Shown piece after piece: positions 5,273 to 57,082 of a DNA stretch of 64,000 bases (position 1 is the stretch's first letter; each line of letters starts with the position of its first letter). This DNA comes from an uncultured delta proteobacterium (GTDB lineage: Bacteria; Desulfobacterota; Binatia; JACPRU01). The notes beneath the pieces are model-generated. The model ran no database searches and had not been told where the DNA came from. It saw only the letters and a list, made by a program, of their open reading frames with translations. The stretch lies in contig CAWBOU010000047.1 of the NCBI GenBank assembly GCA_963790365.1, positions 71,429-135,428 on the forward strand, written 5' to 3'. Made by a program: the position numbers and the translations under genes.

Positions 5273-5275
5273 CGC

Positions 5276-5425
5276 ATCTCACCTCTCCCCGTTGGGGAGA
5301 GGTCGGCGCGCAGCGCCGGGTGAGGGGGAGGAGACCGGGGGCGTCTCCCCCTCACTCGCGCCTTCGGCGCCGCCCAAGATGCTCCTCGCCGGTTCGGAGC
5401 GGGCGCTCCCCAACGGGGAGAGACG
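5276..5425. repeat. composite REP-like element, family A
   Basis: Hairpins CCTCTCCCCGTTGGGGAGAGG (5282-5302) and CTCCCCAACGGGGAG (5406-5420), plus inverted GGGTGAGGGGGAG / CTCCCCCTCAC (5318-5356). Related copies at 37858 and 57083. Confidence 0.75.
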
Positions 5426-5435
5426 TTGGGAAACT

Positions 5436-6587
5436 CTAAAGCAACTCCGCGATCTTTGCTCGCTGGTAGACGCCGTCCCCGAACAGCTGCTGGTTGTGCA
5501 GCTGGCGCTTGAACCAGATCTGCACGTCGCACTCCCAGGTGAAGCCGATGCCGCCGTGGAGCTGCACGGAGCGGTTCGAGCAGAACGCCGCCGCGTCGGA
5601 CGCGGACGACTTCGCCATGCGCGCGAACAGCTCGGCCTTGTCGGGCTCCGTGTCGATCGCGCACGCGGCGTTCAGCGCCTGTGAGCGCGCGTCGTCGACC
5701 GCGAGCATCATGTTGACGATCGGGTGCTTCACCGCCTGGAAGAAGCCGATCTGGCGGTCGAACTGCTTCCGCACCTTGGCGTACTCGGCGGTCGTCTGGA
5801 GCTGCCACTCCCCCGCCCCGCCCATGTCGGCCGCGATCACCGTGAGGATCGCCGGAAGAGCCTTGTCGAGCGCCTTCGGCGCGTTCGGCGCGGCGGCGAC
5901 GACGTTCGCCTTCGGTACGGTGACGCCGGAGAGCTCGACGGACGCCTGGTCGCGGGTGAGGTCGACGATCCGATCCGGCCGGATCGTCACGCCCGGCGTG
6001 TCCGCCGGCACGACGTACATTCCGACGCCTTCTTTGGACCGCGCCGAGACGACGAAGAACGACACTTTGCGCGCGTCCTGCACGAACGACGCGACGCCGT
6101 CGAGCACCGCGCCGTCGCCCTGCGCCTTCGCCGAGACGTCGGTCTCTTCGAAGTCCCACGAGCCGGCCGCGTTCGTGATCGCGAGCGTCGCGCTCTCGCC
6201 GCCGGCGATCTTTTCGAGCCAGGCATCCGCTTCCTTCGTGTTCGCTTCACGCAGCGCGAACGTGGCGTTCAGCGTCGCGATCAGCGGCGAGGGGGCCGCA
6301 TGACGGCCCATCTCTTCCGCGAGCGCGGCGACCGCGACCATCTTCATGCCCGCGCCGCCCGCGCGCTCCGGCACGGCGAGCGCCGTCCAGCCGAGGCCGA
6401 CCATCTCCTTCCAGAGCTTCTCGTCGTAAGGTGCCGGCGGCACCGGCGACTCGTACGCCTCCTGGTGGCTCGCCGCGACCGTCTTGCGGAGCTTGTCGAC
6501 GGGACAGTTCTCGTCGAGGAAGCGCCGAACCGAATCGCGGAGCATCACCTCGTCCGCGCCGAAACCGAAATCTTTGGGCTGTGCCAT
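5436..6587 (-). CDS. acyl-CoA dehydrogenase family protein
   Basis: ATG 6587 (MAQPKDFGFGADEV..) with GGAG 8 nt upstream. Ends ..QLHGGIGFTWECDVQIWFKR, an ACAD C-terminal pattern. Confidence 0.9.
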   Translation of the reverse strand: MAQPKDFGFGADEVMLRDSVRRFLDENCPVDKLRKTVAASHQEAYESPVPPAPYDEKLWKEMVGLGWTALAVPERAGGAGMKMVAVAALAEEMGRHAAPSPLIATLNATFALREANTKEADAWLEKIAGGESATLAITNAAGSWDFEETDVSAKAQGDGAVLDGVASFVQDARKVSFFVVSARSKEGVGMYVVPADTPGVTIRPDRIVDLTRDQASVELSGVTVPKANVVAAAPNAPKALDKALPAILTVIAADMGGAGEWQLQTTAEYAKVRKQFDRQIGFFQAVKHPIVNMMLAVDDARSQALNAACAIDTEPDKAELFARMAKSSASDAAAFCSNRSVQLHGGIGFTWECDVQIWFKRQLHNQQLFGDGVYQRAKIAELL

Positions 6588-6602
6588 GTTTGATCTCCGT
6601 CT

Positions 6603-6678
6603 AGCGGCGTTTGAGCCGCCGAGCAGCAACGCTTACCTCGAGCGCGGACGAGCGGTCGGCCGGCTCCAAACGCCGCGG
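6603..6678 (-). other. intergenic long-loop hairpin between the two ACAD genes
   Basis: GCGGCGTTTGAGCCG (6604-6618) pairs with CGGCTCCAAACGCCGC (6661-6676), with one bulge. It lies directly after the upstream TAA stop. Confidence 0.35.
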
Positions 6679-6680
6679 CC

Positions 6681-7889
6681 TTACTTCGACTTCGCCATGC
6701 CGAGCACGCGTTCGCCGAGGATGTTTCGCTGAATCTCGTTCGACCCCGCGGCGATCGTCATGCCGAAGGAGTTCATGTAGGCGAGCGGCCATTGTCCGCC
6801 GTCGGGCGCGCTCTCGTCGCCGATGTAGAGGCTCGAGGCGATGCCCTCGATCTCGAGCGCGACCTGCGAGAGATCCTGCGAGAGCTCGGTGATGATGAGC
6901 TTCGACGAAAGCGGGATCCGCATCGGATGGTCCGTCAGCGATTCCACGCGCGTTCGGCGGAACGTCTGGCCGAAACCGTTCGCGCGGACGGCGATCTTCA
7001 CGATGCGGTCGCGAATCGCCCCGTCTTCCCAGGCGCTCTTGCCGTTCCGCTTCGTCCGCTTGGCAAGCTCGATCAAGGCTGTCACGCGATCCTCCAGAGA
7101 AGTGCCGCCGCCCGAGCCCGCGCCTTCCGCGGCGCCGCGCTCGTAGAGGAGCGTCGTCATCGCCACCGTCCAGCCTTTGCCGACTTCGTCGAGGCGGAGC
7201 TTGTCGGAGATCTCGAGATCCTCGAACAGCACCTCGTTGAAGCCGGTCTCGCCGGTCATCTTGATGAGCGGCCGCACGGTCACGCCCTTCGCGTCCTTGA
7301 TCGGCACGATGAAGTACGTGAGGCCGTCGTATTTGTGATCGCGGCTGTGGCGCGCGAGCAGGATCATCCAGCTCGCGAAATGCGCGAGGCTCGTCCACAC
7401 TTTGTGGCCGTTGATGATCCACGTGTCGCCGCGCCGCTCGGCCCACGTCTGCGCGCCCGCGAGGTCGGAGCCGGAGCCCGGCTCGCTGAAACCCTGGCAC
7501 CAGATCTCGTCCGACGAGAGGAGCGACGGCAGGAAGCGGCGCTTGTTCTCCTCCGAGGCGTGATTGAGGATCGTCGGCGCGGCCATGCCGAGGCCGATCA
7601 CGTTGATCATGAACGGCACCTGCGCTCGCGCCATCTCGTTCGAGGCGATGCGCTGGAAGCCCTTGTGGCCGTGCCCGCCGTATTCTTTCGGGTAGTCGGC
7701 GCCGACGAGGCCCGCGCCGTGGCACTTCTTCTGCCAAGCGCAGAGATAGACGCGCTGCTCCTCCGTCATGACCTCGATCGCGTTCTGCGGCATGCGGAAG
7801 GTCGGCGCCGGCGGGCGGTTTTCCTTCAGCCAGCGGCGGCAGTACTCGCGAAACTCGGCTTGCTCGGGCGTGTCTTTCGCTTCGGACAT
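6681..7889 (-). CDS. acyl-CoA dehydrogenase family protein
   Basis: ATG 7889 (MSEAKDTPEQAEFREY..). Contains CQGFSEPGSGSDLAG..WIINGHKVWTS..AAGSNEIQRNILGERVLG, ACAD motifs. Confidence 0.9.
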   Translation of the reverse strand: MSEAKDTPEQAEFREYCRRWLKENRPPAPTFRMPQNAIEVMTEEQRVYLCAWQKKCHGAGLVGADYPKEYGGHGHKGFQRIASNEMARAQVPFMINVIGLGMAAPTILNHASEENKRRFLPSLLSSDEIWCQGFSEPGSGSDLAGAQTWAERRGDTWIINGHKVWTSLAHFASWMILLARHSRDHKYDGLTYFIVPIKDAKGVTVRPLIKMTGETGFNEVLFEDLEISDKLRLDEVGKGWTVAMTTLLYERGAAEGAGSGGGTSLEDRVTALIELAKRTKRNGKSAWEDGAIRDRIVKIAVRANGFGQTFRRTRVESLTDHPMRIPLSSKLIITELSQDLSQVALEIEGIASSLYIGDESAPDGGQWPLAYMNSFGMTIAAGSNEIQRNILGERVLGMAKSK

Positions 7890-8006
7890 CGGGTTCCTCG
7901 TCGCGCTGTTGGGGATCCGGCTAGGTAAGTCGGCGGCCGACCCTGAGTCAACGAGGATTCGGCCGGGATTCTCGCGCCCCCGCCTGTCGTGGTAGACGGG
8001 CCGGTC

Positions 8007-9189
8007 ATGGCCGATCTCTTCCACCCCACCGAGGAGCACCGCGAGCTCCGCCGCACGCTCCGCGAGTTCGTCGAGAACGAGGTCGATCCGCAGGCGATGG
8101 CCTCGGATCGAAGCGAGACGTTCAACCTCTCGCTCTTTCGCCGCCTCGGCGAGCTCGGCGTGCTCGGCATCACGGTCGACGAGAAATACGGCGGCGCCGG
8201 GCATGGACGCCGTCGCCGCGGTGATCGTGCACGAGGAGCTCGCGGCGTCCGATCCCGGCTTCTGCCTCGCCTACCTCGCGCACTCGATGCTCTTCGTGAA
8301 CAACTTCTTCCACAACGCGAGCGACGAGCAGCGCGCGCGCTACCTGCCCGACGCCTGCTCCGGCAAGAAGGTCGGCGGCATGTGCATGTCGGAGCCGGGC
8401 GCCGGCACGGACGTGCTCGGCATGCAGCACGACCGCCGTCCGCAAAGGCGACCATTACGTGCTCAACGGCCGGAAGATGTGGATCACGAACGGCGCGATC
8501 TCGCGATACGGAGCTCGGCGACGTCTTCCTCGTCTACGCGAAGACCGGCGACCGCGGGCCGCGAAGCCTCTCGCTGTTCCTCGTCGAGAAGGGCTTCTCC
8601 GGGTTCCGGCTCGGGCAGAAGATCAAGGACAAGCTCGGCATGCGCGCCTCGACGACCGCCGAGCTCGTGTTCGACGGACTGCGCCGTACCGGTCGCGAAC
8701 CGCATCGGCGAGGAGGGCGCCGCCGTCATGCACATGATGCGGAACCTCGAGCTCGAGCGGCTGACGCTCGCGGCGATGAGCCTCGGGCTCGCGCGGCGGT
8801 GCGTCGAGGTGATGAACCGCTACGCGTCCGAGCGGAAGGCGTTCGGCCAGCCGATCCGCGAGTTCGGCCAAGTCCAGCGCCACATCGCCGACTCGTACGC
8901 GAAGTGGATGGCCGGACGGAGCTACGTCTACCAGGTCGCCGGCAAGCTGGATCTCGGCGCGACCGGCAACCGCGTCGACTCCGACGGCGTGAAGCTCTTC
9001 TGCTCGGCGATGGCGAAGGAAGTCGCCGACTCGGCGATCCAGGTGCTCGGCGGGTACGGCTACGTCGGCGAGTACCAGGTCGAGCGGCTCTGGCGGGACG
9101 CGAAGCTCCTCGAGATCGGCGGCGGCACGATCGAGGCGCACCAGAAGAACATGACTCGCGATCTCGCGTCCGCGACGACGCTCGAATGA
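8007..9189 (+). pseudogene. isovaleryl-CoA dehydrogenase-like gene split over 5 frame segments (4 net +1 shifts), or assembly indels
   Basis: Segments: MADLFHPTEEHRELR..EKYGGAG (frame 0) | MDAVAAVIVHEEL..MSEPGAGTDVLGMQ (frame 1) | TTAVRKGDHYVLNGRKMWITNGAI (frame 2) | DTELGDVFLVYAKTG..ELVFD (frame 0) | DCAVPVANRIGEEG..YQVERLWRDAKLLEIGGGT (frame 1). Confidence 0.8.
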
Positions 9190-9632: not shown

Positions 9633-10861
9633 AGCACGCGACGACCCGCGAGGCCGTCGCCGCGCTGTTTCTCGAGCGGCAGCGACTCGACAAGCCGCGC
9701 GCGCGGAAGCTCTCGGCCGCCTCGCTCGTCGACTTCGCGCGCGCGACGGGCGGCATCCAGCTCGATTCGATCAACATCGTCGACCGCGCCCACCTGCTCA
9801 CGCTCTGGAGCCGCTTCGGCGAGTTCGATCGCCGGCGTTTCGAGGCGCTCGCGTACGAGCGCCGGCTGCTCTTCGAGTACTGGGCGCACGCCGCCTGCCT
9901 GATCGCCGCCGACGACTTCCCCGCGTGGCGCCGCGCGATGCTCGACTACCGCGAGGGAGACCGCGGCTGGTCGACGTTCCTCCGGCGGAATTCGCGCGTC
10001 CTCGCCGAGGTGGAGTCGGCGATTCGCGACCGCGGACCGCTCGGCAACGCGGACTTCGAGGGACGGCGGCCGCGCGGCGCGAGCCCGGGATGGTGGAGCT
10101 GGAAGCCGGAGACGCACGCGCTCGACTTCCTCTGGATGAGCGGACGGATCCTCGTGTCGCGCCGCGTCCACTTCCAGAAGCGCTACGATCTCGCCGAGCG
10201 TGTGCTCGGCGCGGCGCTCGACGGTGAGCCGCCGACGATGGAGGCCTTTCGCCGCTGGCATCTCCGGCGCGCGCTCTCCGCGATGGGCGCAGCCACCGAG
10301 ACCGACCTCCGCATGTACCTCACGTTCCCGCGCACCGCCGCTGCCGAGCGACGACGGACGCTCACGGCAATGATCGCAGACGGAGAGGTCGTCGAGGTCT
10401 CCGTGGCGGGCGATGCCGCACGCTGGTTTGCGCTCCGCGAAGACATGCGGGCGCTCGACCGCGCTGCGCGCCGCTCGATGCCCTCGATCGGCACGACGTT
10501 CCTCTCACCGTTCGACTCGTTCCTCTGGCACCGCGAGCGGACGATCCGGCTCTTCGACTTCGACTACCGGATCGAGGTCTACACGCCCGCCCCCGCGCGG
10601 CGGCACGGCTACTACGTGCTCCCGATCCTGCAGGACGGGCGGCTCGTCGGGCGCGCGGACCTACGGAACGATCGCGCCGCGCGTCGGCTCGAGGTGCCGC
10701 GGATCGCGCTCGAGCCCGCGGCGGAACGCACGACGTCCGCCGCGGGAGTGGCCGATGCGCTTCAGTCGCTCGCGCGATTCGTGGGCGCGACGTCCATCCG
10801 GATCGACGCGGCCTCGCCTGCACGGTTCGGGCGCGAGCTCCGCAAAAAAAATCCTTCGTAA
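9629..10861 (+). CDS. winged-helix YcaQ/AlkZ-like (DUF1006) DNA glycosylase family protein
   Basis: GTG 9629 overlaps the GNAT stop (GTGA). Contains GGIQLDSINIVDRAHLLTLWSR..FEYWAHAACLI..HGYYVLPIL, typical of the YcaQ family. Confidence 0.85.
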   Translation: MKHATTREAVAALFLERQRLDKPRARKLSAASLVDFARATGGIQLDSINIVDRAHLLTLWSRFGEFDRRRFEALAYERRLLFEYWAHAACLIAADDFPAWRRAMLDYREGDRGWSTFLRRNSRVLAEVESAIRDRGPLGNADFEGRRPRGASPGWWSWKPETHALDFLWMSGRILVSRRVHFQKRYDLAERVLGAALDGEPPTMEAFRRWHLRRALSAMGAATETDLRMYLTFPRTAAAERRRTLTAMIADGEVVEVSVAGDAARWFALREDMRALDRAARRSMPSIGTTFLSPFDSFLWHRERTIRLFDFDYRIEVYTPAPARRHGYYVLPILQDGRLVGRADLRNDRAARRLEVPRIALEPAAERTTSAAGVADALQSLARFVGATSIRIDAASPARFGRELRKKNPS

Positions 10862-10872
10862 GCATTTTTTTT
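10844..10872. terminator. A8T / AT8 hairpin between convergent genes (weak bidirectional terminator candidate)
   Basis: AAAAAAAAT (10844-10852) pairs with ATTTTTTTT (10864-10872); loop CCTTCGTAAGC. It overlaps both stop codons. Confidence 0.4.
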
Positions 10873-11773
10873 AGGCGGAGAGGCGGTGCCGGTCGGCTTG
10901 ACGGGTCAGTCGCTCGACCGCATCGGCGATCCGCGGCCAGGCCGGTCGCGGGAGATCGTGGCCCATGCCCTCGATCACCAGGAGCTCGGCGCCGGAGATC
11001 GACCGGGCGGTGTCGAGCCCGGCTTCGAGCGGCACGAGCGGGTCGGCATCCCCGTGCACGACGAGCGCCGGGATCCGGAGCCGCTGAAGCGCGTCCCGCC
11101 GGCTCGTGGCCGTGAGGAGCGCGACGAGCTGCCGGAGCGCTCCCTCGGGGTGATGGCCGCGGTCGTAGGAGCGGCGCTCGCGCTCGCGGATCCCCTCTTC
11201 GTCGAACGGGAAGCCCGGGCTGCCGATCGTGCGGAAGAGATTCACCACCCGCTCGATGTTGCCCTCGCGGTCGGGCGGTCGCGGCGTGAGGAGCGCGGCG
11301 GCGGCTTCGGCACGGGCGGGCGGCAGCGAAGGGTCGCCCGTGCTGGAGAGCATCGAGGTGAGCGAGCGGACGCGGCCGGGCTCGAGGATCGCCATCGTCT
11401 GCGCGATCATGCCGCCGAGCGAGGCGCCGACGACGTGCGCGGAGGACAGGCCGAGCACGTCGAGCACGCCGAACGCGTCGCGCGCCATGTCCTCGAGCGT
11501 GTAGGGAATCTCGAACGGCGCGCGCGCCATGATCCGCACCATCACGTCGAACGGATCCGGCGCGCCGAGATGGTCGAGCTTGGACGAGAGGCCGACGTCG
11601 CGATTGTCGAAGCGGACGACGAAGTGTCCGCGGTGCGCGAGGTCCTCGCAGAACGGCTCGTCCCACAGGATCATCTGCGCGCCGAGCCCCATGATGAGAA
11701 GCAGCGGGCGCGCGTTCACGTCACCGAACGTGTCGTATTCGATCTCGAGATCGTCGACCCGAGCGCGGGGCAT
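10871..11773 (-). CDS. alpha/beta hydrolase
   Basis: 300-aa ORF with PLLLIMGLG, nucleophile elbow VGASLGG and HGDADPLVP..GMGHD. Confidence 0.9.
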   Translation of the reverse strand: MPRARVDDLEIEYDTFGDVNARPLLLIMGLGAQMILWDEPFCEDLAHRGHFVVRFDNRDVGLSSKLDHLGAPDPFDVMVRIMARAPFEIPYTLEDMARDAFGVLDVLGLSSAHVVGASLGGMIAQTMAILEPGRVRSLTSMLSSTGDPSLPPARAEAAAALLTPRPPDREGNIERVVNLFRTIGSPGFPFDEEGIRERERRSYDRGHHPEGALRQLVALLTATSRRDALQRLRIPALVVHGDADPLVPLEAGLDTARSISGAELLVIEGMGHDLPRPAWPRIADAVERLTRQADRHRLSA

Positions 11774-11827
11774 GACCGCCCGCCATGAGGCGTTCCCGGG
11801 CCCGCGTCAATGACTCGGGAACCGATG

Positions 11828-11866
11828 CACCCCCTCAGGGGGTCGGGCGTAAGCCCGGGGGGTGAG
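11828..11866. repeat. REP-like element, family B
   Basis: CACCCCCTCAGGGGGTCGGGCGTAAGCCCGGGGGGTGAG (two nested hairpins). Copies at 16011 and 17095. Confidence 0.75.
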
Positions 11867-11870
11867 TCGC

Positions 11871-12320
11871 CTAGGGCGGGCCGAGCGGAAGCTCGGCTTG
11901 CGGATCGGGCTCGGCGGAGGAGCGACGAAGCGCGGCGAGCTCCTCGTCTCGTTTGCGAAGCTCCTCTTCGAGCATGCTGCAGCGGACCTCGTACATGCGG
12001 ACCTGACCGAGCTCCTGCACGAGCGCGGTGAGGCGCTTCTCGAGCTTCCGGCGGTTCGCGCGCTCGCGCTTGAGCTCGCGCTCGAAATCGACGGCCGGGG
12101 GCGCGGCCTGGTTGGCGACGACCGCTGGCTTCTTCGCGGGCTGCGCCGGGGCGCGGCGCTTCGCCGGTCGCGGCGTCTTCTTCGGGGCCGGCCGTATCCG
12201 CTTTTCGGCTTTCCGGATCGGAGCTTTCCGCTTCGCGGCAGCCTTCGGCTTCTTCCTTGCGGCCTGCGGCTTCCTCTTCGCGGCCTTCGGCCGGGCGCGC
12301 TTCTTCCCGCCTCGCTTCAC
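11871..12320 (-). CDS. Lys/Ala/Pro-rich (histone-H1-like) protein with C-terminal coiled coil
   Basis: GTG 12320: VKRGGKKRARPKAAKRKPQAARKKPKAAAKRK..AKKPAVV, then DFERELKRERANRRKLEKRLTALVQELGQV..LEEELRKRDEELAALRR. It ends just before the REP. The overlapping-frame ORF 11716..12423 runs through the REP and into the next gene, so it was rejected. Confidence 0.55.
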   Translation of the reverse strand: MKRGGKKRARPKAAKRKPQAARKKPKAAAKRKAPIRKAEKRIRPAPKKTPRPAKRRAPAQPAKKPAVVANQAAPPAVDFERELKRERANRRKLEKRLTALVQELGQVRMYEVRCSMLEEELRKRDEELAALRRSSAEPDPQAELPLGPP

Positions 12321-12436
12321 TTCGCGGGTTCTTAGCGAGGAAGCGCGCGGCGCAAAAGAGCCGGCCTGACTTTTTCGGCCTCGGGTGGTCTCCGGCGACG
12401 ACGCTCTTGGGCGTCGGTGACACCGTCGCCAGGAAA

Positions 12437-46462: not shown

Positions 46463-49400
46463 TCACGACCAGGCGATGACTTGCTCCTGCTTCTCGACGA
46501 ACGGCACGCCGATCTTTTCGATCCAGCCGCGCGGCGGGTCCGCGCCGATGAGCGCGAAGACGTGCACGCAGTCGAGCGTGCGCGGCCCGGCGGCGAGCTT
46601 CAGCACGGCACCCTCGGCGCGCAGCTCGGTCACCGACGACTCCCAGACGATCTCGATCCGGCCGGCCTTCGAGAGCTCCTCGATCTGCTCGAGATTCCGC
46701 TTCTTCACGCGCGCAAACGCGTTCTTGCGGTAGGAGAGCCAGACGGTCGTGCCCTCCGCCTTGCCGAGCGCGACGGCCGCCTCGATCGCGCTGTCGCCGC
46801 CGCCGACGACGAGCACCTTCTTGCCCTTCCAATCCCCGGCGTCGATCAGGTTGTAGGAGACGAGGCCCGCCTCTTCGCCCGTGCAGCCCAGACGACGCGG
46901 GTTCCCGCGCGTGCCGATCGCGAGCACCACGTTCGCGGCGGTGTACTCGCCCTTCGCGGTCTTCACCTTGAGGAGCTCGCCCTCGCGGCGGATCTCGCTC
47001 ACTTCCTCGTGCTGCTGCACCTCGAGGCCGGTCGCCTTCACGACCGCTTCCCACACCGCGATCAGCTCGTCCTTCTCGGCGTCCATCATGGGAAGCTTGC
47101 CGTAGAGCGGAACCTTCACGGGCTCGGCGAGCACCGCCTTGTCGCGCGGGTACGCGCGGATCGTGCTCGCGACCGTGTCGCGCTCGAGGACGAGGTAGCG
47201 GAGACCCGTGGCCTTCGCCTCGAGGCCGGCGCCGAGGCCGGCGGGCCCGGCGCCGACGACGATCACGTCGTAGTGCGGCGCAGCGACTCGCTTCTTCTTG
47301 TCCTTGATGTACCGCACGACGTCGGTGCCCTGGTTCACCGCCGATTTGATCAGCGCGGCACCGATCACCTCGCCAACGAAGAAGAGGCCCGGCATCGGCT
47401 TCGCCTCGAGGTGGTCGTCCGTGTCCGGCCGCTCGACCGTGCGCACCAGCGGCGCGGTGCTGACGCGGATCGCACCCGTCGGACAGCCCTGCTCGCAAAC
47501 CGCGCAGCCTTCGAGCGCGATGCAGCTGTCGGGATTGACGACGGTCGACTTGCCGTGGTCGTCGCCCGCGAGCACCTGCTTCGGGCACGAGTTGTAGCAG
47601 CTGCTGCACGAGATGCAGGCTTCGACGTCGACCGTCGGGAAGGGCATGACCTCGCCCTTCGGAGTGTCTCCCTCGGGCGGCGCTCCGGCCGGCGCCTGGC
47701 CCGGCCCGGCCGCGGCCTGCTCCGGCTCGAGATAGCGCCGCGCGACGCGCATGTCCGTGTAGAGGTAGGCGAAGCCGCCGAGGATGAGCGTCGCGAGCCC
47801 GATCAAGAAGCGATCGAAGCCGCGTGCGGGCGGGGCCGCGGCCGCGGCGGTCTCGCCGCCGTCGAAGCTGTGGTGCGAGCGATGGCAATCGAGGCACGCG
47901 ACCGTCGCCTTCTTCTCCTCGTGGCAGGTCACGCACGCGTCCATCGTCATCACGTAGACGTCGGGCGAGCGGAACACGCTCGCGTACGTCCCCTCCTCCC
48001 ACACCGGCGCGTGGCAGCTCTGGCAGAGCTCCTCGCCATGATCGCGATGCGCGAACCGCGTCCACGCGAACGCGCTCGGCGGGAGCTCCTGCATCTCCCC
48101 GTCCTCGCGCGTGTGGCATTCGAGACAATCCGGGCCCTTCTTCTGCTGCGCGACCTTCTCGTCCGCCGAGACGGCCTTCTCGTGGCACTCGATGCACTGT
48201 GCGTGGCCGGGCATCGCGAACGTGCGGCCGTCGTCCACGTTCGCGTGGCAGCCCGTGCAGTTGTCGAACCTCGCCTCCCCTTTCGTTTCCGCATCGTGAG
48301 CCGCGTGCGCGAAGCGGAGACCGATCTCGACCTTGCGGAACGGCTCGGCGAGCTTGGCGATCGCGGCGGTGCCGCCGGCGACCGTGGCCGCCGCGCGCAT
48401 CGGCCGCGCGTCGAAGTCGCGCGGCTCGTCGCGCCCGAGGTGGCAGCTCCAGCAGACGTCCTTGCCGCCGGCGATCGGGAAATTCCGGCCGCGATGGTCG
48501 GTGTGGCAATCGAGGCAGTTGTCCTGGATACCTGGTTCGTTCGCGAGCGCGCTCGCGTGGCAGTCCGCGGTGACGCAGCTGCCACTCATCGCGAGCTGCG
48601 TCTGACGAGTGCCGATGCCCTCGAAGCCGGCGTGGCAGCTGCCGCACTTCTCGCGCGACTCGAGCTCGGCATGCTCGGCGTGGAGCGGCCCGGCCGAGAG
48701 CAGCGCCGGATACTGCATGCTGAAGCCGAGCGAGACGATCGCGGCGAGGAGCATCATGCCGAGGCTCGCCCACTGTCGCGGCGTGCCGGGCACGCGCACC
48801 GGGCGAAGGCTCACGCCCTTCATGATGCGGCTGATCCGCTGCTTCGCCTCGGCGCTCTTCGCGAGCTCCGGGATCGGCTCCGCCTTCTTGCCCTTGCCCT
48901 TCGCGGCCGGCGCTTCCCCACCCGCGGCCGGTGGCGCGGCGGAAGGCGGTGCGGCAGGAGGCGGCGGAGCCGCGGCCACCGCGCCGATGCGCGTGAGCTG
49001 CGTGCCCTCCTCGACCGCGGACGCGACGCCGGCTCCGCCGAGCTCCACCGCGACGCGCGCATCGCCGAGCCGGAGCTCCTCGCCGCCGCGAAGCGGAAGC
49101 GACTGCACGCGCTCCGTGGAATCGCCGACGAACGTGCCGTTCCGGCTGCCGATGTCCTTCAGGACCCAGCCATCCGGCGTGCGCAGGACCGTGCAGTGAT
49201 TCCCCGAGACCGAGGGATCGTCGATCCGGAGCATCGCGGCCGAGCTGCGGCCGATCGTCACCTCTTGCGTGCCGGCCGGGACCTCGAGCACGCTGCCGGA
49301 CGCGAGGATGCGGAAGCGGAGCACGGGCGGGGCGTCGGCCGCCGGCACTGCGTCGGTGGCGGGCAGCGGCGCATCCGCCGGAGCCGCCTCGGCTTCAGCC

Positions 49401-50164
49401 TCGCGCGGGCGGATCGCGGTGAGCGATGGCATCGAGAGCGCGAACGTGGACTCGCCCACCTTGATCGCGAACGTCTGCTCGGAGGCCTCGACCTTGGCGC
49501 CGCCGCCCATCTCGACGCGGATCTGAGTGCCGCCGCCGAGCCGCACGATGTCTCCATGCGCGAGAACGCCGTGGTAGATCCTTTGCGGAGGCGTGCCGAC
49601 GTAGATGCCGTTTCGGCTGTTCTCGTCGTAGATCGCGTAGCCGCCCTTCTCGCGCTTGATCGTCGCGTGAAGGCGCGAGAGCGACGGGTCGTTCAGCGGC
49701 ACGTCGTTCGTCGGCAGCCGCCCGAGCGTGATCTTCTCCTTCGGCGGCGAGAAGACCTGGCCGCGATCCGGCCCGGAGACGACCGTGAGCACGATCGGCA
49801 GGTCCGACGGCAGCTGCGCGATGACGGTCGCGCCTTCGGCCTTCACGGCCGCGGCCTGCCCGGCGAGGATCGCGACGCGGAGGCGCGCCTTGCCGACGAG
49901 AATCGTCTCGCCGTCGGCGAGCCGCCGGCGCTTCACCCGATCCTGCGAGCCCTCGACGAACGTGCCGTTCCGACTCTCGAGATCGACGAGCGCGAAGCCG
50001 TCGCCGTCGCGCTCGATCGCGGCGTGCTTGCGCGAGATCTGATCGTCGTCGAGCTCGACGTCGGCTTCGACACGCCCGATCGTGAGCCGCTCACCACGCA
50101 GCTCGAACTCATGCCGTTTCTTTTCAGCATCGAACCAGGCGAGCTTCAGTCGCGTCGAAGGCAT
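46463..50164 (-). CDS. 3x FHA, TM, about 10-haem cytochrome c domain, TM, 2x[4Fe-4S] ferredoxin, FAD/NAD(P)-binding oxidoreductase fusion protein (1233 aa)
   Basis: Uninterrupted ORF. FHA patterns at aa 25-95, 143-215 and 300-372. Hydrophobic helices at aa 465-483 and 785-802. Nine CxxCH plus CVTADCH between them. CISCSSCYNSCP and CIALEGCAVCEQGCP. VIVVGAGPAGLGAGLEA and VLVVGGGDSAIEAA. Confidence 0.9.
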   Translation of the reverse strand: MPSTRLKLAWFDAEKKRHEFELRGERLTIGRVEADVELDDDQISRKHAAIERDGDGFALVDLESRNGTFVEGSQDRVKRRRLADGETILVGKARLRVAILAGQAAAVKAEGATVIAQLPSDLPIVLTVVSGPDRGQVFSPPKEKITLGRLPTNDVPLNDPSLSRLHATIKREKGGYAIYDENSRNGIYVGTPPQRIYHGVLAHGDIVRLGGGTQIRVEMGGGAKVEASEQTFAIKVGESTFALSMPSLTAIRPREAEAEAAPADAPLPATDAVPAADAPPVLRFRILASGSVLEVPAGTQEVTIGRSSAAMLRIDDPSVSGNHCTVLRTPDGWVLKDIGSRNGTFVGDSTERVQSLPLRGGEELRLGDARVAVELGGAGVASAVEEGTQLTRIGAVAAAPPPPAAPPSAAPPAAGGEAPAAKGKGKKAEPIPELAKSAEAKQRISRIMKGVSLRPVRVPGTPRQWASLGMMLLAAIVSLGFSMQYPALLSAGPLHAEHAELESREKCGSCHAGFEGIGTRQTQLAMSGSCVTADCHASALANEPGIQDNCLDCHTDHRGRNFPIAGGKDVCWSCHLGRDEPRDFDARPMRAAATVAGGTAAIAKLAEPFRKVEIGLRFAHAAHDAETKGEARFDNCTGCHANVDDGRTFAMPGHAQCIECHEKAVSADEKVAQQKKGPDCLECHTREDGEMQELPPSAFAWTRFAHRDHGEELCQSCHAPVWEEGTYASVFRSPDVYVMTMDACVTCHEEKKATVACLDCHRSHHSFDGGETAAAAAPPARGFDRFLIGLATLILGGFAYLYTDMRVARRYLEPEQAAAGPGQAPAGAPPEGDTPKGEVMPFPTVDVEACISCSSCYNSCPKQVLAGDDHGKSTVVNPDSCIALEGCAVCEQGCPTGAIRVSTAPLVRTVERPDTDDHLEAKPMPGLFFVGEVIGAALIKSAVNQGTDVVRYIKDKKKRVAAPHYDVIVVGAGPAGLGAGLEAKATGLRYLVLERDTVASTIRAYPRDKAVLAEPVKVPLYGKLPMMDAEKDELIAVWEAVVKATGLEVQQHEEVSEIRREGELLKVKTAKGEYTAANVVLAIGTRGNPRRLGCTGEEAGLVSYNLIDAGDWKGKKVLVVGGGDSAIEAAVALGKAEGTTVWLSYRKNAFARVKKRNLEQIEELSKAGRIEIVWESSVTELRAEGAVLKLAAGPRTLDCVHVFALIGADPPRGWIEKIGVPFVEKQEQVIAWS

Positions 50165-50174
50165 CGTCGGAATC

Positions 50175-51245
50175 TCAGTAGTAGAAGACCGACACGATGT
50201 GGATCAGCGAAAACGCCGCGAGCCCCGCGGAGAGCGGAATGTGCGCGGTGAGCCACACCTTCAGCAGGTAGTCGTATCGCAGCTGCGGATAGAGCGAGAC
50301 TTCGAGCTTCTCCTTGTCGAAGACGAGCCGCATCGCCTTGCGGAAGTCCTCCTGCTCGCCGGCAGGGATCTCCTTGACGATCAGCCGCAGGCGATCCGGC
50401 CGGCTCGTGTCGCGCTCGAGCGTCGCCGGGCCCCAGATCCAGGGGAGCGACGGCTTCATCGCGATGCCCGGAATCGACATCTCGACGTCGTACACGCGGC
50501 GGAACGCGTCGGACTTCCCGGTCGCGAGACCCTTCAGCTCTTCGAGGACCTGCTTCAGCTCGTCCCGCAGCTCCTCCGGCGACCGCGCCGCCTTCTCCTC
50601 GATCTCCGTGAGCCTCGGCGGGATGCGGCGGTAGAGGACCACACCGAGGAGCCCGGTCAGCACGACGGCGACGAGCAGCACGAAGGCGATCGCGGCGATC
50701 GGGTTCGCGAAGCGGAAGCCCGCGTGAAGGAGGATCAGCACGACGGCGAGCACGCCGAGCGCGAGATGCCACTCGTACCAGACCTGCAGACGCCCGCCCC
50801 ACTCGCGCCGCTCGAAGACGAGCCGCGGCGCGCCGCTGCTCGTCTTCAGGAGGCGCACGCGGATCGTCCTCGTCACCTTGTGGCGCTTCAGGATCTTCTT
50901 CACCTCGCTCCGGAGCTGCCGCAGGTCCTGCTTCGGATTCTGCATCAGCGAGCGCTCGACGCCGCGAAGGTCGTTCTGCGCCTTGCGCTCGCGGCTCACG
51001 AGGTCCCTGCGCTTCTCCGCGTCGATGAGGATCGGCCGGCTCGCGCGCTCGATCTGCCGACGCCGCCATCCGTAGAGACCGGCGACGATCATCGCGAGCG
51101 TGCCGAAGATGCCGAGCCACACGCCCGTCGCCGAGCGGCCGGAAGGCGCGAGCGGACGAACCGAGGCGTCCTGCGTGTACCAGATGGCGCACGCGATCGC
51201 GGCGAGCACCGCGATCGACACCACTCGCAACCTGAGAGCGCTCAC
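50175..51245 (-). CDS. 5-TM membrane protein with two H-x13-H helices (candidate dihaem b-type cytochrome)
   Basis: 356 aa. Helices around aa 8-24, 41-60, 160-177, 183-205 and 331-353. His160/His174 and His335/His349 are each spaced by 13 residues inside helices. Starts 4 nt after the upstream stop. Confidence 0.75.
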   Translation of the reverse strand: MSALRLRVVSIAVLAAIACAIWYTQDASVRPLAPSGRSATGVWLGIFGTLAMIVAGLYGWRRRQIERASRPILIDAEKRRDLVSRERKAQNDLRGVERSLMQNPKQDLRQLRSEVKKILKRHKVTRTIRVRLLKTSSGAPRLVFERREWGGRLQVWYEWHLALGVLAVVLILLHAGFRFANPIAAIAFVLLVAVVLTGLLGVVLYRRIPPRLTEIEEKAARSPEELRDELKQVLEELKGLATGKSDAFRRVYDVEMSIPGIAMKPSLPWIWGPATLERDTSRPDRLRLIVKEIPAGEQEDFRKAMRLVFDKEKLEVSLYPQLRYDYLLKVWLTAHIPLSAGLAAFSLIHIVSVFYY

Positions 51246-51249
51246 GCCG

Positions 51250-52794
51250 CTACTCCCGAGCGGAAATGATGCGATCCAGCTCGTCGGCGCGCAGCCGCTG
51301 GATCGCCCCCGTTGGACAGTTGCTCACGCAGGCGGGGAACAGATGTCCCTTGTCGAGATCGCACTTCACGGGGATGCGCTTCAGCTTCGGCCGCTTGTCC
51401 GTCGCTTCCGGGACGTCGGCGCGGCGCCGGCCGTCGCGGCGCAGCACGACGTCGATCAACGAGGGCACCGCCGGCCGATCGATCTCGTCGGTGTCGACCA
51501 TCGTGATGTTCCCGTAGGGACACCGCTGCGCACATCCGCTGCAGCCGATGCAGCTCTCGGTGAAGTAGATGTCACCGTCCTTGTCGCGCTTGATGCCGCC
51601 CGACTTGCAGAGGAGGCACGACGGATCCTGACAGAAGCGGCACGCCGTCGGGATCATCAGCTCTTCGAAGTGCACGCCCTTCCGGATCAGGCGCGAGAAG
51701 CCGTCTTCGTGCGCGGCCGCGCAGGCCTTCACGCAGTTGTCGCAGCGAACGCACGTATCTTCGTTGATCACGATGACGTCGAGGTTCGGCATGACCTCGG
51801 CGCGAAGCTCCATGCGCCTGCCGACGAACGTGACGTTCGCGACCATGTCGGCGTCGAGGCGCCGTACTTGATCGACGGCCCCGGCCTCCGCCGCGGCCGC
51901 GGGATTCGACATCACGATCTCGCGGAACGCCTTGCCCGCGAGGACGAGCGCTTCGACGCGGCCGAGCGCCGTGGCGGTCGCGGAGCGAGGCGCCCCGTTG
52001 AGGACGCCGACGTCACCGAAACAGTCGCCTTCGACGAGATACGAGAGGACCCTCGTTTCGCCGTCGGCCTCGCGCTGGGCGATCTTCACGAAGCCGGTGG
52101 AGATCACGAAGACGTCGTCGGAAGGCTGTCCCTGCTCGAAGATCGTCGCGCCGACCTCGAACGTGCGCGTCGACGCCGCGCGGAGCACGTTCTCGAACTC
52201 CTTCTCGCTCGCCGAGCGCAGCACCGGCACGCGACGCACGAGCGTGCGGATCACCCGGAACACGTACCGCTCCATGATCGCCGCGCGGAAGCTTTCGGTC
52301 GTCGAGACGAGCTCTTGGACGATGAACTGCGGGATCAACATCAAGAGCGCCGGCGTCTTCGTCACGACGCTCGCGAGGTGTGCGTTCATGGAAAGCACAG
52401 AGTGCTCGCCGAAGAACGAGCCTTCGGGAAGATCGTCGACCGGCAGCGCGACGGTGCGATCGATGTCGGCGGAGTAGTTCGTCGACATCCCCGCCTGCCC
52501 GCGCAGGATGAAGAAGAGATGCTCGCCGAAGCTGCCTTCCTGGAAGACGCTCGTGTCGGCCGGAACTTCCCAGAACTCCGCGTGCTCGCCGAGCGCATCG
52601 CCGACGGAAACCTTGACCGGCCCCTTCGCGCCCGGCCGCGTCTCGTACGGCTTGTCGAGCAGGTCCTTGAAGAGCGCGAGGCCTTGGAAGAAGCGCAGCT
52701 TCTCGTCCGCGGAGAGGCTCAGCTGCTTCACCGCCGGCGATCGCGTCAGCGCAAAGCTCGGTCGATGAGCTTCGCTCGACTCCAGGAGTGCCAT
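51250..52794 (-). CDS. two cyclic-nucleotide-binding domains fused to a multi-cluster [4Fe-4S] ferredoxin domain
   Basis: ATG 52794 (MALLESSE..). cNMP-like FQEGSFGEHLFFILRG..FFGEHSVL, and a canonical second domain IFEQGQPSDDVFVISTG..CFGDVGVLNGAPRSATATA. CVRCDNCVKAC, CRFCQDPSCLLC, CIGCSGCAQRCP, ..ACVSNCP. Confidence 0.85.
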   Translation of the reverse strand: MALLESSEAHRPSFALTRSPAVKQLSLSADEKLRFFQGLALFKDLLDKPYETRPGAKGPVKVSVGDALGEHAEFWEVPADTSVFQEGSFGEHLFFILRGQAGMSTNYSADIDRTVALPVDDLPEGSFFGEHSVLSMNAHLASVVTKTPALLMLIPQFIVQELVSTTESFRAAIMERYVFRVIRTLVRRVPVLRSASEKEFENVLRAASTRTFEVGATIFEQGQPSDDVFVISTGFVKIAQREADGETRVLSYLVEGDCFGDVGVLNGAPRSATATALGRVEALVLAGKAFREIVMSNPAAAAEAGAVDQVRRLDADMVANVTFVGRRMELRAEVMPNLDVIVINEDTCVRCDNCVKACAAAHEDGFSRLIRKGVHFEELMIPTACRFCQDPSCLLCKSGGIKRDKDGDIYFTESCIGCSGCAQRCPYGNITMVDTDEIDRPAVPSLIDVVLRRDGRRRADVPEATDKRPKLKRIPVKCDLDKGHLFPACVSNCPTGAIQRLRADELDRIISARE

Positions 52795-52843
52795 GAGATG
52801 GGACCGTCTACCCGACTGCGACGCGCGACGGCAAGGAGCGCGG

Positions 52844-53626
52844 ATGTCAGTGCCGCCTCTCATCTGCTATGGGGCGCCCGTGGCTGCCCCCTCGCCCATC
52901 GACGACGCGCTCCGTCCCGTCGGCGAGCTCGCGGCCGGTTACGTCGACGACGGCATGCGCGTCGGCCTCGGAACCGGACGCGCCGCGTCGGCGTTCGTTC
53001 ACGCGCTCGCGCTGCGCGCGCGTGAGGGGCTCGACGTCGTCGGCGTGCCGACGTCCGAAGCGACGCGACGACTCGCCGAATCTCTGGGGCTCCGCGTCAC
53101 GGAGCTCGACGGCGTCGGCGAGCTCGATCTCACCGTCGACGGCGCGGACGAGGTCGATCCCCATCTCGATCTGATCAAGGGGCTCGGCGGCGCCCTCGTG
53201 CGCGAGAAGATCGTCGCGGCTTCGTCGGCCCGGCTCGTGATCGTCGTCGGCGGCGAAAAGCTCGTCTCTCGCCTCGGCGTGAAGACGCCGGTGCCGGTCG
53301 AGATCGTGCAGTTTTCCCGGCCGCTCTGCGAGCGGCTCATTCGCGCGCTCGGCGCCGAGCCGCGCCTGCGGATGACCCCCGCCGATTCGAAAGCGCCGTA
53401 CGTCACCGACAACGGAAACTTCATCTTGGATTGCCACTTCGCCGGCATCGACCATCCCCGCGCTCTGGAAGTCGCGCTGCGGGAGATCCCGGGGGTCGTC
53501 GGCACCGGCCTGTTCCTGAACATGGCGGAGCGGGTTCTCGTGCAGGAAGGCAACACGGTGCGCGTCCTCATGGCGCAACCGTCGCAGAGCGGAGCGACCT
53601 TGCATCCGATCGGGAAAGGGAAATAG
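52844..53626 (+). CDS. rpiA: ribose-5-phosphate isomerase A
   Basis: ATG 52844. [46 protein letters not shown]. Confidence 0.9.
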
Positions 53627-53636
53627 GCCTGCGACG

Positions 53637-55688
53637 ATGACCGCCGAACAGCTCGATCAGCTCGCGATCAACACGATTCGCTTCCTTTCGGCGGACGCCG
53701 TGCAGAAGGCGAACTCCGGTCATCCCGGCCTCCCCATGGGTGGCGCGGCGATGGCCTATGCGCTCTGGACGCGATTCCTTCGCCATTCCCCGACGCAGCC
53801 CGATTGGCCGGATCGCGACCGCTTCATCCTCTCCGGCGGCCACGGCTCGATGCTCCTCTACTCCCTCCTCCATCTCACCGGCTACGACCTGCCGATGGAG
53901 GAGATCCAGTCGTTCCGGCAGTGGAAGAGCCGGACGCCCGGCCACCCCGAATCGCACATCACGAAGGGCGTGGAGGCGACCACGGGCCCGCTCGGCCAGG
54001 GTCTTTCGAACGCGGTCGGCTTCGCGATCGGCGAGGCGCACCTCGCCGCCAGCTTCAATCGCCCCGGGCACGCGATCGTCGATCATCGCACCTGGGTGAT
54101 CGCGAGCGACGGCGACGTCATGGAGGGCGTCGCCTCCGAAGCCTGCTCGCTCGCCGGGCACCTTCGCCTCGGCAAGCTGAACGTCCTCTACGACGACAAC
54201 CAGATCTCGCTCGCGGGCACGACGTCGCTCTCGTTCAGTGAAGACGTCGGCAAGCGCTTCGAGGCGTACGGCTGGCACGTGCAGCACGTCGCCGACGGCA
54301 ACGACCTCGAGGCGGTCGACCGAGCCTGCAAGCGAGCGCTCGAGGCGACCGACCGGCCGTCGATCATCTGCGTCCGGACGATCATCGGCTACGGCGCGCC
54401 GCACAAGGCGAACACGTTCGAGGCGCACGGCTCGCCGCTCGGTCCCGACGAGCTGAAGGCCGCGAAGGAGAATCTCGGCTGGCCGCTCGAGCCCGCGTTC
54501 CTCGAGCCGCCCGAGGCGCTCGCGAAATTCCGCGCGTCGGTGGAAGCCGGCAAGCTGCTCGTCGCCGAGTGGACGAAGCGCTTCGACGCGTATCGCCAGG
54601 CGCATCCCGATCTCGCCGCGGAATTCGAGCGCCGCATGGCGGGCAAGCTGCCGGACGGCTGGGACGCCGAGATTCCGACGTTCCCCGCCGACGAGAAGGG
54701 GCTCGCGACACGGAAAGCTTCCGAAGCGGTGATCCAAGGGCTCGCGAAGAAGCTCCCCGAGCTCTTCGGGGGCTCGGCCGATCTCAACCCCTCGACGTTC
54801 ACGTGGATCAAAGGCGCAGGCGACTTCGAGAGCCCGGCCGCGTCGAAAGACGGCGCGCAGGGTGCGGTCGGCGGCCCGTGGGGCTACGACGGACGGAACC
54901 TCCATTTCGGCGTCCGCGAGCACGGGATGGGCTCCGCGGTGAACGGCCTCGCGTATCACGGCGGCTTCATCCCCTACGGCTCCACCTTTCTGATTTTCTC
55001 CGACTACATGCGCGCCGCGATCCGGCTGTCCGCGCTCTGCGAGCTCGGCTCGCTCTGGATCTTCACGCACGATTCGATCGGCCTCGGCGAGGACGGGCCG
55101 ACGCACCAGGCGGTCGAGCACTATGCCGCGCTGCGCGCGATCCCGGGCCTCCTCTTCATCCGTCCGGGCGACGCGAACGAGACGGCCGTCGCGTATCGCG
55201 CCGCGATCGAGAATCGCCATCGCCCGACGGTCTTCGCGCTCACGCGCCAGAACGTGCCGACGCTCGACCGCACGAAGTTCGCCTCGGCGGACGGGGTGCG
55301 GAAAGGCGCGTACGTGCTGAACCCCGACGTAACGAACCCCGAGGCGATCTTGATGGCGACCGGCTCCGAGATAGGGCTGATCGTCACGGCCGGTGAGACG
55401 CTCGCGAAGAAGGGCGCCCGCGTGCGGCTCGTGTCGATGCCGTGCTGGGAGCTCTTCGCCGAGCAGCCGGACGGCTATCGCGAGAGCGTCCTCCCCGCCG
55501 GCGTGAAGCGCCGCCTCGCGGTCGAGAGCGGCGTGTCGCTCGGCTGGCATCGCTGGGTCGGCGACGCGGGCGAGCTCGTCACGCTCGAGCGCTTCGGCGC
55601 CTCGGCCCCCGCCCCGCGCCTGATGAAGGAATTCGGATTCACGACGGAGAACGTCGTCGCCCGCGCCGAGAAGCTGCTCGGCCGCTAG
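53637..55688 (+). CDS. tkt: transketolase
   Basis: 683 aa. [57 protein letters not shown]. Confidence 0.95.
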
Positions 55689-55714
55689 ATTTCTCGACGA
55701 AACGGAGATCGCGC

Positions 55715-57082
55715 ATGTCGAATCCCCTCCTCGAGCTCCAACGCCTCGGCCAATCGCCCTGGCACGACAACATCCGCCGCGAGCTTCTCACCAGCGGCAA
55801 GCTCAAGAAGATGATCGACGACGGCGACATCACGGGCCTCACGTCGAATCCGACGATCTTCGAGCAGGCGATCGCTCAATCGTCGGACTACGACGCGGAT
55901 CTCGCGAGCCTCGCCAAAAAAGGAAAGTCGTCCGAGGAGATCTTCGACCAGCTCGCCTGCGACGACGTCCGCGACGCGTGCGACCTCTTCGCCGACGTCC
56001 ATCGCCGGACCGAGGGCAAAGACGGGTTCTGCTCGATCGAGGTCGCGCCGAAATTCGCGCGCGACACGGTCGCGACGATCGCCGAGGCGCAGCGGCTCTG
56101 GAAGAAGGTCGACCGCCCGAATCTGATGGTGAAGATTCCGGCAACCCGCGAAGGCATCCCCGCGATCGAAGAGTCGATCGCCTCCGGCCTCAACATCAAC
56201 GTGACGTTGATCTTTTCCCTCGAGCGTTACGACGAGGTGATGAATGCGTACCTCTCCGGGTTGATCCGCCGCGTGCAGCGCGGCGAGGCGGTCGACCGCA
56301 TCGCTTCCGTCGCGAGCTTCTTCGTGAGCCGCGTCGACACACTCGTCGACAAATTGCTGGACGAGAAGATCACGAGTGGCGACGGAGACGCCGCACAGCT
56401 CGAGGGTCTGCGAGGAAAGGCCGCAATCGCGAATGCGAAGCTCGCATTTCAGGCGTTCCGTCGGAAGTTCGCGACCGAGGCGTACGCGGGCACGGCCGCG
56501 CGCGGCGCGCGCGTGCAGCGCCCGCTCTGGGCGAGCACCTCGACGAAGAATCCGAAGTATCCCGACGTGTACTACGTCGAGGCGCTCGTCGGACCGGACA
56601 GCGTCGACACGCTGCCCCCGGCGACGATCGTCGCCTACAAGGACCACGGACGGCCCGAGCTCCGGATCGAGAGCGAGATCGACGGTGCGCGCCAGGTAAT
56701 GTCCGACCTCTCCCGAGTCGGCATCGACATGGATGCGGTGACGAAGAAGCTCGAGGAAGACGGCGTCGCGTCCTTCGCGAAGTCGTTCGACTCGCTGATC
56801 GCGACGGTCGAGGAGCGCCGGGCGAAGGCGGTGACCGCGAAGCCGAAGGGAGCGAAGCCGAAGGCAGCCGCGAAGGCGAAGAAGAAAGCCGCGCCGAAGC
56901 GAAAGGCCGCGCCCAAGAAGGCGAAGGCGGGCAAAGCGAAGAACGTCGCAAAACCGAAGAAAGTCTCGAAGCCGAAGAAGCGCGCCGTCAAGACGAAGGC
57001 GCGGAAGAAGCCGGCGAAGCGGCGGCCGGCGGCGAAGAAGGCAAAGCGACGCGCGGTGAAGCGCCCGCGCAAGAAGCGCTAG
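55715..57082 (+). CDS. tal: transaldolase with an approximately 85-aa Lys/Ala/Pro-rich C-terminal extension
   Basis: ATG 55715 after GGAG. LGQSPWHDNIRRELL..TSNPTIFEQAI..MVKIPATREGIPAIEE..NVTLIFS; the core ends near ..FDSLIATVEERRAK and continues AVTAKPKGAKPKAAAKAKKKAAPKRK..KRPRKKR. Confidence 0.9.
   Translation: MSNPLLELQRLGQSPWHDNIRRELLTSGKLKKMIDDGDITGLTSNPTIFEQAIAQSSDYDADLASLAKKGKSSEEIFDQLACDDVRDACDLFADVHRRTEGKDGFCSIEVAPKFARDTVATIAEAQRLWKKVDRPNLMVKIPATREGIPAIEESIASGLNINVTLIFSLERYDEVMNAYLSGLIRRVQRGEAVDRIASVASFFVSRVDTLVDKLLDEKITSGDGDAAQLEGLRGKAAIANAKLAFQAFRRKFATEAYAGTAARGARVQRPLWASTSTKNPKYPDVYYVEALVGPDSVDTLPPATIVAYKDHGRPELRIESEIDGARQVMSDLSRVGIDMDAVTKKLEEDGVASFAKSFDSLIATVEERRAKAVTAKPKGAKPKAAAKAKKKAAPKRKAAPKKAKAGKAKNVAKPKKVSKPKKRAVKTKARKKPAKRRPAAKKAKRRAVKRPRKKR

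Follow-up and report, generated by a model that had tools for sequence, protein, structure and literature searches.

A four-histidine membrane protein encoded between FeS protein and multihaem cytochrome genes in a Binatia genome is probably a dihaem b-type cytochrome

How electrons would cross the inner membrane is the question raised by a gene cluster in a 64,000-nucleotide stretch of DNA from an uncultured delta proteobacterium of the Binatia (contig CAWBOU010000047.1, positions 71,429 to 135,428), referred to here as the window, in whose numbering its coordinates are given. The cluster codes for a cytoplasmic iron-sulfur (FeS) protein with cyclic nucleotide monophosphate (cNMP)-binding domains, a fusion protein combining FHA, multihaem cytochrome c, [4Fe-4S], and NAD(P)H flavoprotein domains, and, between the two, a membrane protein with two pairs of His residues. 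This four-His protein, the product of open reading frame (ORF) 50175..51245, is probably a dihaem b-type cytochrome belonging to a family not yet characterised, itself probably a distant branch of the ferric-reductase/DUF4405/prokaryotic b561 superfamily. An earlier, sequence-only reading of the locus had put the protein forward as a candidate dihaem b cytochrome, and invariant His residues, leaflet topology, weak matches to two-haem families, and a profile alignment with ferric reductases now support that assignment.

The protein has five His residues in its 356 aa, of which four make up two H-x13-H pairs and the fifth is H122. The codons of the paired residues lie at 50766-50768 (H160), 50724-50726 (H174), 50241-50243 (H335), and 50199-50201 (H349), and the span 50199..50768 singled out in the sequence-only reading runs exactly from H349 to H160. 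Two H-x13-H pairs arose by chance in 0.08% of 200,000 residue shuffles. Translation and hydropathy confirm the two transmembrane (TM) helices described earlier, each with a His pair at exactly this spacing, and place them as TM3 and TM5 among five TM segments. Confirmed too are two long charged loops, at residues 61-155 (29 K/R versus 11 D/E) and 206-326 (23 versus 23). With a spacing of 14 residues along a helix, the two His residues of a pair share one face and stand about 21 Å apart, which suits two separate bis-His sites and makes a single metal site impossible. The features of the protein are as follows, with the limits of the TM segments approximate.

50175..51245, reverse strand: ORF of the four-His membrane protein, 356 aa by translation, with a GTG start and a TGA stop at 50175-50177.
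51177..51224, reverse strand: TM1, residues 8-23, running in to out and poorly conserved; seen by hydropathy and as helix 3-29 of the AlphaFold2 (AF2) model.
51066..51125, reverse strand: TM2, residues 41-60, out to in, with G41 and G45 (invariant) at the periplasmic end and R61 and R/K62 at the cytoplasmic end.
50781..51065, reverse strand: cytoplasmic loop 1, residues 61-155, very basic, with long helices and a beta-hairpin; absent from a short form of about 275 aa.
50715..50780, reverse strand: TM3, residues 156-177, in to out, with the motif W156-x3-H160-x3-G164-x9-H174, which holds proposed axial ligands of both haems.
50631..50699, reverse strand: TM4, residues 183-205, out to in, with invariant G198 and G201 near the cytoplasmic end.
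50268..50630, reverse strand: cytoplasmic loop 2, residues 206-326, a helical domain found family-wide, whose last helix is continuous with TM5; proposed docking surface for the FeS partner.
50178..50267, reverse strand: TM5, residues 327-356, in to out, with the motif W331-x3-H335-x-P337-x11-H349, which holds the second pair of proposed axial ligands.

The GTG start lies 7 nt downstream of a GGGAG ribosome site and is the position at which the N-termini of 25 homologues align, and the same genome contains no paralogue of the protein.

The family is large and highly diverged. A word-based search returned 64 relatives, nearly all from Candidatus Binatia metagenome-assembled genomes, and an exhaustive HMMER search (E <= 1e-3) returned at least 1,393 clusters at 50% identity, most of them about 275 residues long, matching residues 150-356, and lacking loop 1. 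The four His residues, whose conservation the sequence-only reading had left to be checked, are kept far more strictly than chance would allow: they are invariant in alignments of 26 Binatia-type sequences, of 90 diverse representatives, and of 94 sequences. Mean column identity among the 90 representatives is 18%, and the only invariant columns are G45, H160, H174, G198, G201, H335, and H349, with W156, G164, W331, P337, and R61 nearly invariant, such that W-x3-H-x13-H is the motif common to both His helices. The Gly residues match one His pair each in depth, with G41/G45 where TM2 meets the periplasm and G198/G201 close to the cytoplasmic end of TM4. Scanning genomes with a narrower alignment as query gave 58 loci, distributed over Acidobacteriota (Thermoanaerobaculia among them), Nitrospirota, Binatia, Planctomycetota, Anaerolineales, Alphaproteobacteria, Verrucomicrobiota, and Actinomycetota. 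Of the 26 homologues extracted from these genomes, representing at least eight phyla, 24 contain the four His and the two Trp residues; the other two (L156 and L163) are ORFs extracted in the wrong frame.

Two variable features of the family are also of note. About half of the 90 representatives have a further His at the position of A184 (50692-50694, the periplasmic start of TM4), which the window protein lacks and which may be a subfamily-specific fifth ligand or propionate contact. Loop 1 (50781-51065) is a basic insertion of 95 residues, missing from most relatives and modelled as two long helices and a beta-hairpin; it has a weak likeness to the stalk helices of ATP synthase subunit b (E 0.55 against the PDB, and one JGI homologue is so annotated).

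The orientation of the His helices follows from charge and from natural fusions. The N terminus and loop 1 are basic, the latter strongly so, and this places the N terminus and both long loops in the cytoplasm. In five relatives (P0105, P0204, L148, L155, and L166) a multihaem c domain begins about 20 to 40 residues past the second His of TM5, and in L148, L155, and L166, from Anaerolineales and Actinomycetota, the C-terminal fusion carries five CxxCH motifs. Haem c is attached in the periplasm, so these fusions put the C terminus in the periplasm and make TM3 and TM5 parallel, both running in to out, with H160 and H335 in the inner leaflet and H174 and H349 in the outer. There are thus four conserved TM His residues with two in each leaflet, the pattern of a two-haem cytochrome b, and the predicted arrangement is the one needed for two stacked bis-His haems. 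The sequence-only reading would have failed had paired residues lain in different leaflets; charge distribution and fusions put each pair in one.

Proteins of the ferric-reductase superfamily (PF01794, including NOX, FRE, STEAP, and MsrQ) have two bis-His sites on TM3 and TM5, with H-x13-H or H-x12-H spacing. The window protein likewise has its His pairs on TM3 and TM5, but it has five TM segments rather than six, ends after TM5, and contains two large cytoplasmic insertions. This superfamily gives the best profile-profile match. With reference alignments of two-haem families built from genomes of the same phylum, and with both cytoplasmic loops deleted from the family alignment, hhalign aligns the core with ferric-reductase domains at a probability of 61.5% (E 7.8e-5) over 115 columns spanning TM2 to TM5, and all four His residues and W331 fall on the corresponding His and Trp. 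For this loop-deleted core, reversed references give no more than 1.2%, and recognised members of the clan score 48 to 72% against one another.

Weak Pfam matches among the 90 representatives point to the same superfamily, being to Ni_hydr_CYTB in 38, DUF4405 in 20, and Ferric_reduct in 13, and other families do not recur; E-values in some relatives are as low as 1e-7 for Ni_hydr_CYTB and 3e-6 for Ferric_reduct. We take all three families to belong to a single two-haem cytochrome clan (2heme_cytochrom). The prokaryotic cytochrome b561/FdnI/HyaC family (PF01292) has a four-helix dihaem fold whose last helix carries an H-x13-H like that of TM5. The other two ligands of FdnI (structure 1KQF) are on two different helices, a pattern of 1+1+2, whereas those of the window protein would be 2+2 on two helices, and the hhalign probability for PF01292 is 13%. 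True DUF4405 members carry the same W-x3-H-x3-G-x9-H helix as TM3, but in those of this phylum a single helix is of this kind and the C-terminal soluble domain is different, and their partners are flavinylation (ApbE) systems rather than FeS and multihaem proteins. For a DUF4405 protein, haem b binding has been shown experimentally and a role in transmembrane electron transfer proposed (PMC11334425).

The bc1/b6f-type cytochrome b (PF00033) was considered as a relative and set aside: its hhalign probability is below 1%, no better than the reversed control, and the parallel of His on two helices and Gly on the other two is thus analogy only. The same genome codes for an ordinary bc1/b6-type cytochrome b (PF00033; G000:C12:101011-101589, a 279-aa ORF), which weakly matches DUF4405, showing that the DUF4405 model cross-reacts with any H-x13-H haem helix.

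Several results weigh against the dihaem assignment. Scans of the window protein against Pfam and NCBIfam place it in no curated family at threshold: its best single Pfam match, to DUF4405 (PF14358), scores 21.8 bits against a cut-off of 26.7 and covers residues 148-177 only, Ni_hydr_CYTB scores 18.5 against 30.1, DUF4079 is also among the best sub-threshold matches, NCBIfam gives no match, and Ferric_reduct, with a 28-bit cut-off, matches neither the window protein nor anything else in the whole genome. The full-length family alignment matches a reversed DUF4405 reference at 52.7% through the soluble helical region, which shows that such probabilities can be spurious, and only the TM-core comparison is relied on; the hhalign support, coming from the loop-deleted alignment, is thus moderate. 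The family profile does not match the single Escherichia coli MsrQ and YodB sequences in hhalign, and hidden Markov model profiles run against PDB sequences return noise only (GPCR, ATP-synthase-b, and coiled-coil entries). AF2 models of the window protein (pLDDT 79.9) and of the 279-residue homologue P0068 (pLDDT 92.9, pTM 0.86) are all-helical with the expected TM helices, TM2 and TM5 extending into long cytoplasmic helices, but Foldseek finds no match for either model in the PDB at E <= 0.001, and STEAP1, cytochrome b561, and bacterial NADPH oxidase appear only at E 2.6-4.7.

A different reading is that of a non-redox scaffold or signalling protein that would hold the FHA-cytochrome and FeS protein together, its His residues binding a metal ion or stabilising the helix bundle. 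Neither InterPro nor Pfam finds a redox motif at threshold, Foldseek gives no significant structural match to haem proteins, and the large cytoplasmic helical loops could be a docking platform. A scaffold was indeed proposed for the counterpart in Ferrigenium straubiae, where a nonahaem cytochrome (NHC) cluster codes for a five-TM protein flanked by a [4Fe-4S] protein and a multihaem cytochrome c with FHA; signal peptides are absent from all three, and the five-TM protein was judged to be without a redox motif (bioRxiv 10.64898/2026.01.22.701106, section 6.3.2). That protein is equivalent by context and TM count; for the window family, the present analysis brings out four invariant His residues and a link to two-haem cytochromes b. 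A scaffold nonetheless appears very improbable for the window protein. At 18% identity the sole invariants are the His residues of W-x3-H-x13-H on two parallel helices and Gly residues of the flanking helices, the His residues of one helix are too far apart for a single metal site, and relatives in several phyla are fused directly to multihaem c domains. Moreover, the four-His protein is the sole transmembrane redox link between cytoplasmic FeS clusters and periplasmic haems c in the window module, which would have none without it.

That the gene lies between those for the FeS protein and the FHA-cytochrome fusion, as the sequence-only reading had it, is borne out by the flanking ORFs and their domain matches. 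The four-His gene starts 4 nt past the stop of the cNMP/FeS gene and ends 10 nt before the fusion gene, and its partners are as follows.

51250..52863, reverse strand: upstream partner, cytoplasmic, with two cNMP-binding domains and a HydN/DmsB-like poly-[4Fe-4S] domain, and no TM segments.
46463..50164, reverse strand: downstream partner of 1233 residues, with three FHA domains, a TM segment, a periplasmic cytochrome c with nine CxxCH motifs and one CxxxxCH, a ferredoxin with 2x[4Fe-4S], and an NAD(P)H flavoprotein of YpdA/TrxB-like type.

Linkage of the four-His gene to cytoplasmic FeS and flavin proteins and to periplasmic haem c is conserved, with domain shuffling between lineages. Four further Binatia loci have the window's three genes side by side, and a cNMP+FeS gene adjoins the four-His gene at all loci examined, with the exception of the fusion locus L007. 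Genes for cNMP+Fer4 proteins, NAD(P)H flavoproteins, and FHA+multihaem c proteins are neighbours in Binatia, Acidobacteriota-type, soil, and planctomycete loci. L003 has flavoprotein, cNMP, and Fer4 domains in one protein and FHA and multihaem domains in another, and L005 and L008 have a cNMP+Fer4 gene upstream and a multihaem cytochrome gene downstream, with an FHA domain in L008. In L009, which codes for a distant long-form relative, the module is followed (10719-12380) by genes for a separate FHA protein, a GAF protein, and part of a guanylate/adenylate cyclase, which fits local cyclic-nucleotide signalling to the cNMP-FeS subunit.

The module is also present in a cultured planctomycete, Lacipirellula limnantheis I41 (L165; NZ_CP036339.1, 265-8708), whose homologue has all four His residues. 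The genes are ordered as an FNR-type NAD-binding/2Fe-2S reductase, a c554-like cytochrome, a cNMP+Fer4 protein, the four-His protein, and a multihaem cytochrome. An FNR-like NAD_binding_1 protein with 2Fe-2S is thus present where other loci have the pyr_redox flavoprotein, and the part that takes in electrons has been exchanged for a non-orthologous one. That NAD(P)H oxidation is supplied by two unrelated flavoprotein families argues that the constant function is transfer from NAD(P)H through FeS clusters and the membrane to multihaem c.

The proposal that the four-His protein is the transmembrane link of the module is thus supported by conserved gene context and by domain fusions, and the protein probably passes electrons across the inner membrane, from cytoplasmic FeS and NAD(P)H-flavin centres to the periplasmic ten-haem cytochrome. 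Domain content and gene linkage suggest a path in which the flavoprotein domain would oxidise NAD(P)H and electrons would move on by way of the [4Fe-4S] clusters that the fusion protein and the cNMP-binding FeS protein carry, the latter protein docking on the large cytoplasmic loops. In the membrane, TM2 to TM5 would form a four-helix core. H160 of TM3 and H335 of TM5 would hold a haem b in the cytoplasmic leaflet, packed on G198/G201 of TM4. The periplasmic leaflet would contain the other haem b, bound by H174 and H349 and packed on G41/G45 of TM2. The two haems b would carry electrons across the membrane to the ten-haem c domain and then to cytochromes of the outer envelope. Such a path would resemble that of modular bacterial NADPH oxidases or MsrQ and would not need the quinone pool. 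With ferric-reductase systems it would share the passage of cytoplasmic NAD(P)H electrons through flavin; it would differ in having FeS clusters between flavin and haem, and a multihaem c acceptor rather than O2, Fe(III) chelates, or MsrP.

Outward flow would spend NAD(P)H and membrane potential, being favoured by both the redox and the membrane potential. Such flow would be wasteful without regulation, and the cNMP and FHA sensor domains on the partner proteins may be there for that reason. Motif, conservation, topology, gene linkage, and domain shuffling are read from the sequences; haem binding, the direction of flow, quinone independence, and gating are what we infer.

Exchange of electrons with the quinone pool is a further reading of the same genes, in which a dihaem cytochrome b would oxidise menaquinol or reduce quinone and communicate with the periplasmic multihaem cytochrome, as in CymA/NrfH-type or CbcL/NarI/DsrM-type modules, and the FeS and flavin proteins would give it a second, regulated way in or out for electrons. 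Quinone sites are common among two-haem cytochromes b of the superfamily, FdnI, NarI, and CybB being examples, and Ni_hydr_CYTB is the commonest weak match in the four-His family. A quinone link was also raised by the Ferrigenium authors for the homologous cluster (bioRxiv 10.64898/2026.01.22.701106). We nevertheless regard it as unlikely, since a quinone-site motif was not identified, since the invariant residues are only His and Gly, and since an FeS protein without its own membrane anchor and a flavoprotein of either type always accompany the gene, providing a complete quinone-free path.

Flow could in principle be inward, with the dihaem cytochrome b passing electrons from extracellular or periplasmic donors, such as Fe(II) acting through outer-membrane cytochromes, by way of the multihaem cytochrome, to the FeS protein and flavoprotein and on to NAD(P)+ or a disulfide. 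Homologous clusters are present and expressed in the Fe(II) oxidiser Ferrigenium, and the flavoprotein resembles YpdA/TrxB, a disulfide-reducing family. Inward electrons would, however, run against the membrane potential and uphill to the NAD(P) couple, and a coupling device is not visible in the module; on these bioenergetic grounds inward flow seems more improbable still than a scaffold, if only slightly.

A published cluster has a related organisation. This ptdABCDEFG cluster includes PtdF, a transmembrane 'ferric reductase-like' protein, in the order PtdC (FAD/NAD(P) oxidoreductase), PtdD (tetrahaem), PtdE (cNMP-binding, with two 4Fe-4S), PtdF, and PtdG (decahaem), and the preprint gives no haem-ligand, topology, or function analysis of PtdF (bioRxiv 10.1101/2023.11.21.568154). 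The gene order around the Lacipirellula homologue is that of ptdC to ptdG. A position after a cNMP/4Fe-4S gene and beside a multihaem c gene, with a flavoprotein in the cluster, is found in the window and also in L001-L006, L008-L011, and L165. Gene order and the published description suggest that the window protein corresponds to PtdF. The window flavoprotein differs in being of the pyr_redox type and fused with FHA and decahaem domains, and the window membrane protein has the extra 95-residue loop.

The superfamily and the principle are known, but the family itself lacks a Pfam model and any known experimental study, and its only name is 'PtdF, ferric reductase-like' in one preprint. The routes known to us by which respiratory electrons leave bacterial cells have the quinone pool as their starting point (CymA, ImcH, and CbcL). 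The window module encodes a complete alternative to such an exit, consisting of an NAD(P)H flavoprotein, an FeS wire, a dihaem b protein as here proposed, and multihaem c, and the four-His protein is the only part able to cross the membrane. Once the family is recognised as a probable cytochrome b, the ptd/NHC-type module as a whole can be interpreted and put to the test, and Lacipirellula limnantheis I41, as a cultured host, offers a practical place to begin.

The presence of cNMP and FHA sensors suggests that electron transfer through the module is gated post-translationally, and such control of an electron conduit is, to our knowledge, hardly described. It is quite possible, and we propose it tentatively, that a widespread NAD(P)H-to-multihaem conduit, bypassing quinones and switched by cyclic nucleotides and Ser/Thr phosphorylation, has the four-His family as its inner-membrane core. 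If so, it would be a new regulated extracytoplasmic electron route, extending from Binatia and Acidobacteriota to Planctomycetota, Chloroflexota, and Proteobacteria.

Beside the window module are divergently oriented genes of the non-oxidative pentose-phosphate pathway (rpiA, tkt, and tal; 52793-57082, forward strand). In the Binatia locus L001, genes for a gnd-like protein, zwf, glk, pgl, and a HAD hydrolase (2830-8304) are directly upstream on the same strand. A pentose-phosphate link, as a possible supply of NADPH, was considered and rejected: such genes adjoin the module in the window and in L001 and L002 but are absent from L010 and L011, and the linkage is not conserved.

A last group of sequences consists of ORFs of about 200 aa whose match to the family profile is confined to its N-terminal half, TM1 to TM4 with one H-x13-H helix.

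G064:C71:10989-11387: half-profile ORF.
G100:C103:4128-4520: half-profile ORF.
G023:C104:1504-1863: half-profile ORF.
G049:C128:87425-87757: half-profile ORF.
G086:C72:635-955: half-profile ORF.
G005:C5:43610-43915: half-profile ORF.

In several genomes of the phylum these ORFs lie within about 2 kb of Ni_hydr_CYTB genes, and they may be split or two-subunit versions of the four-His family.

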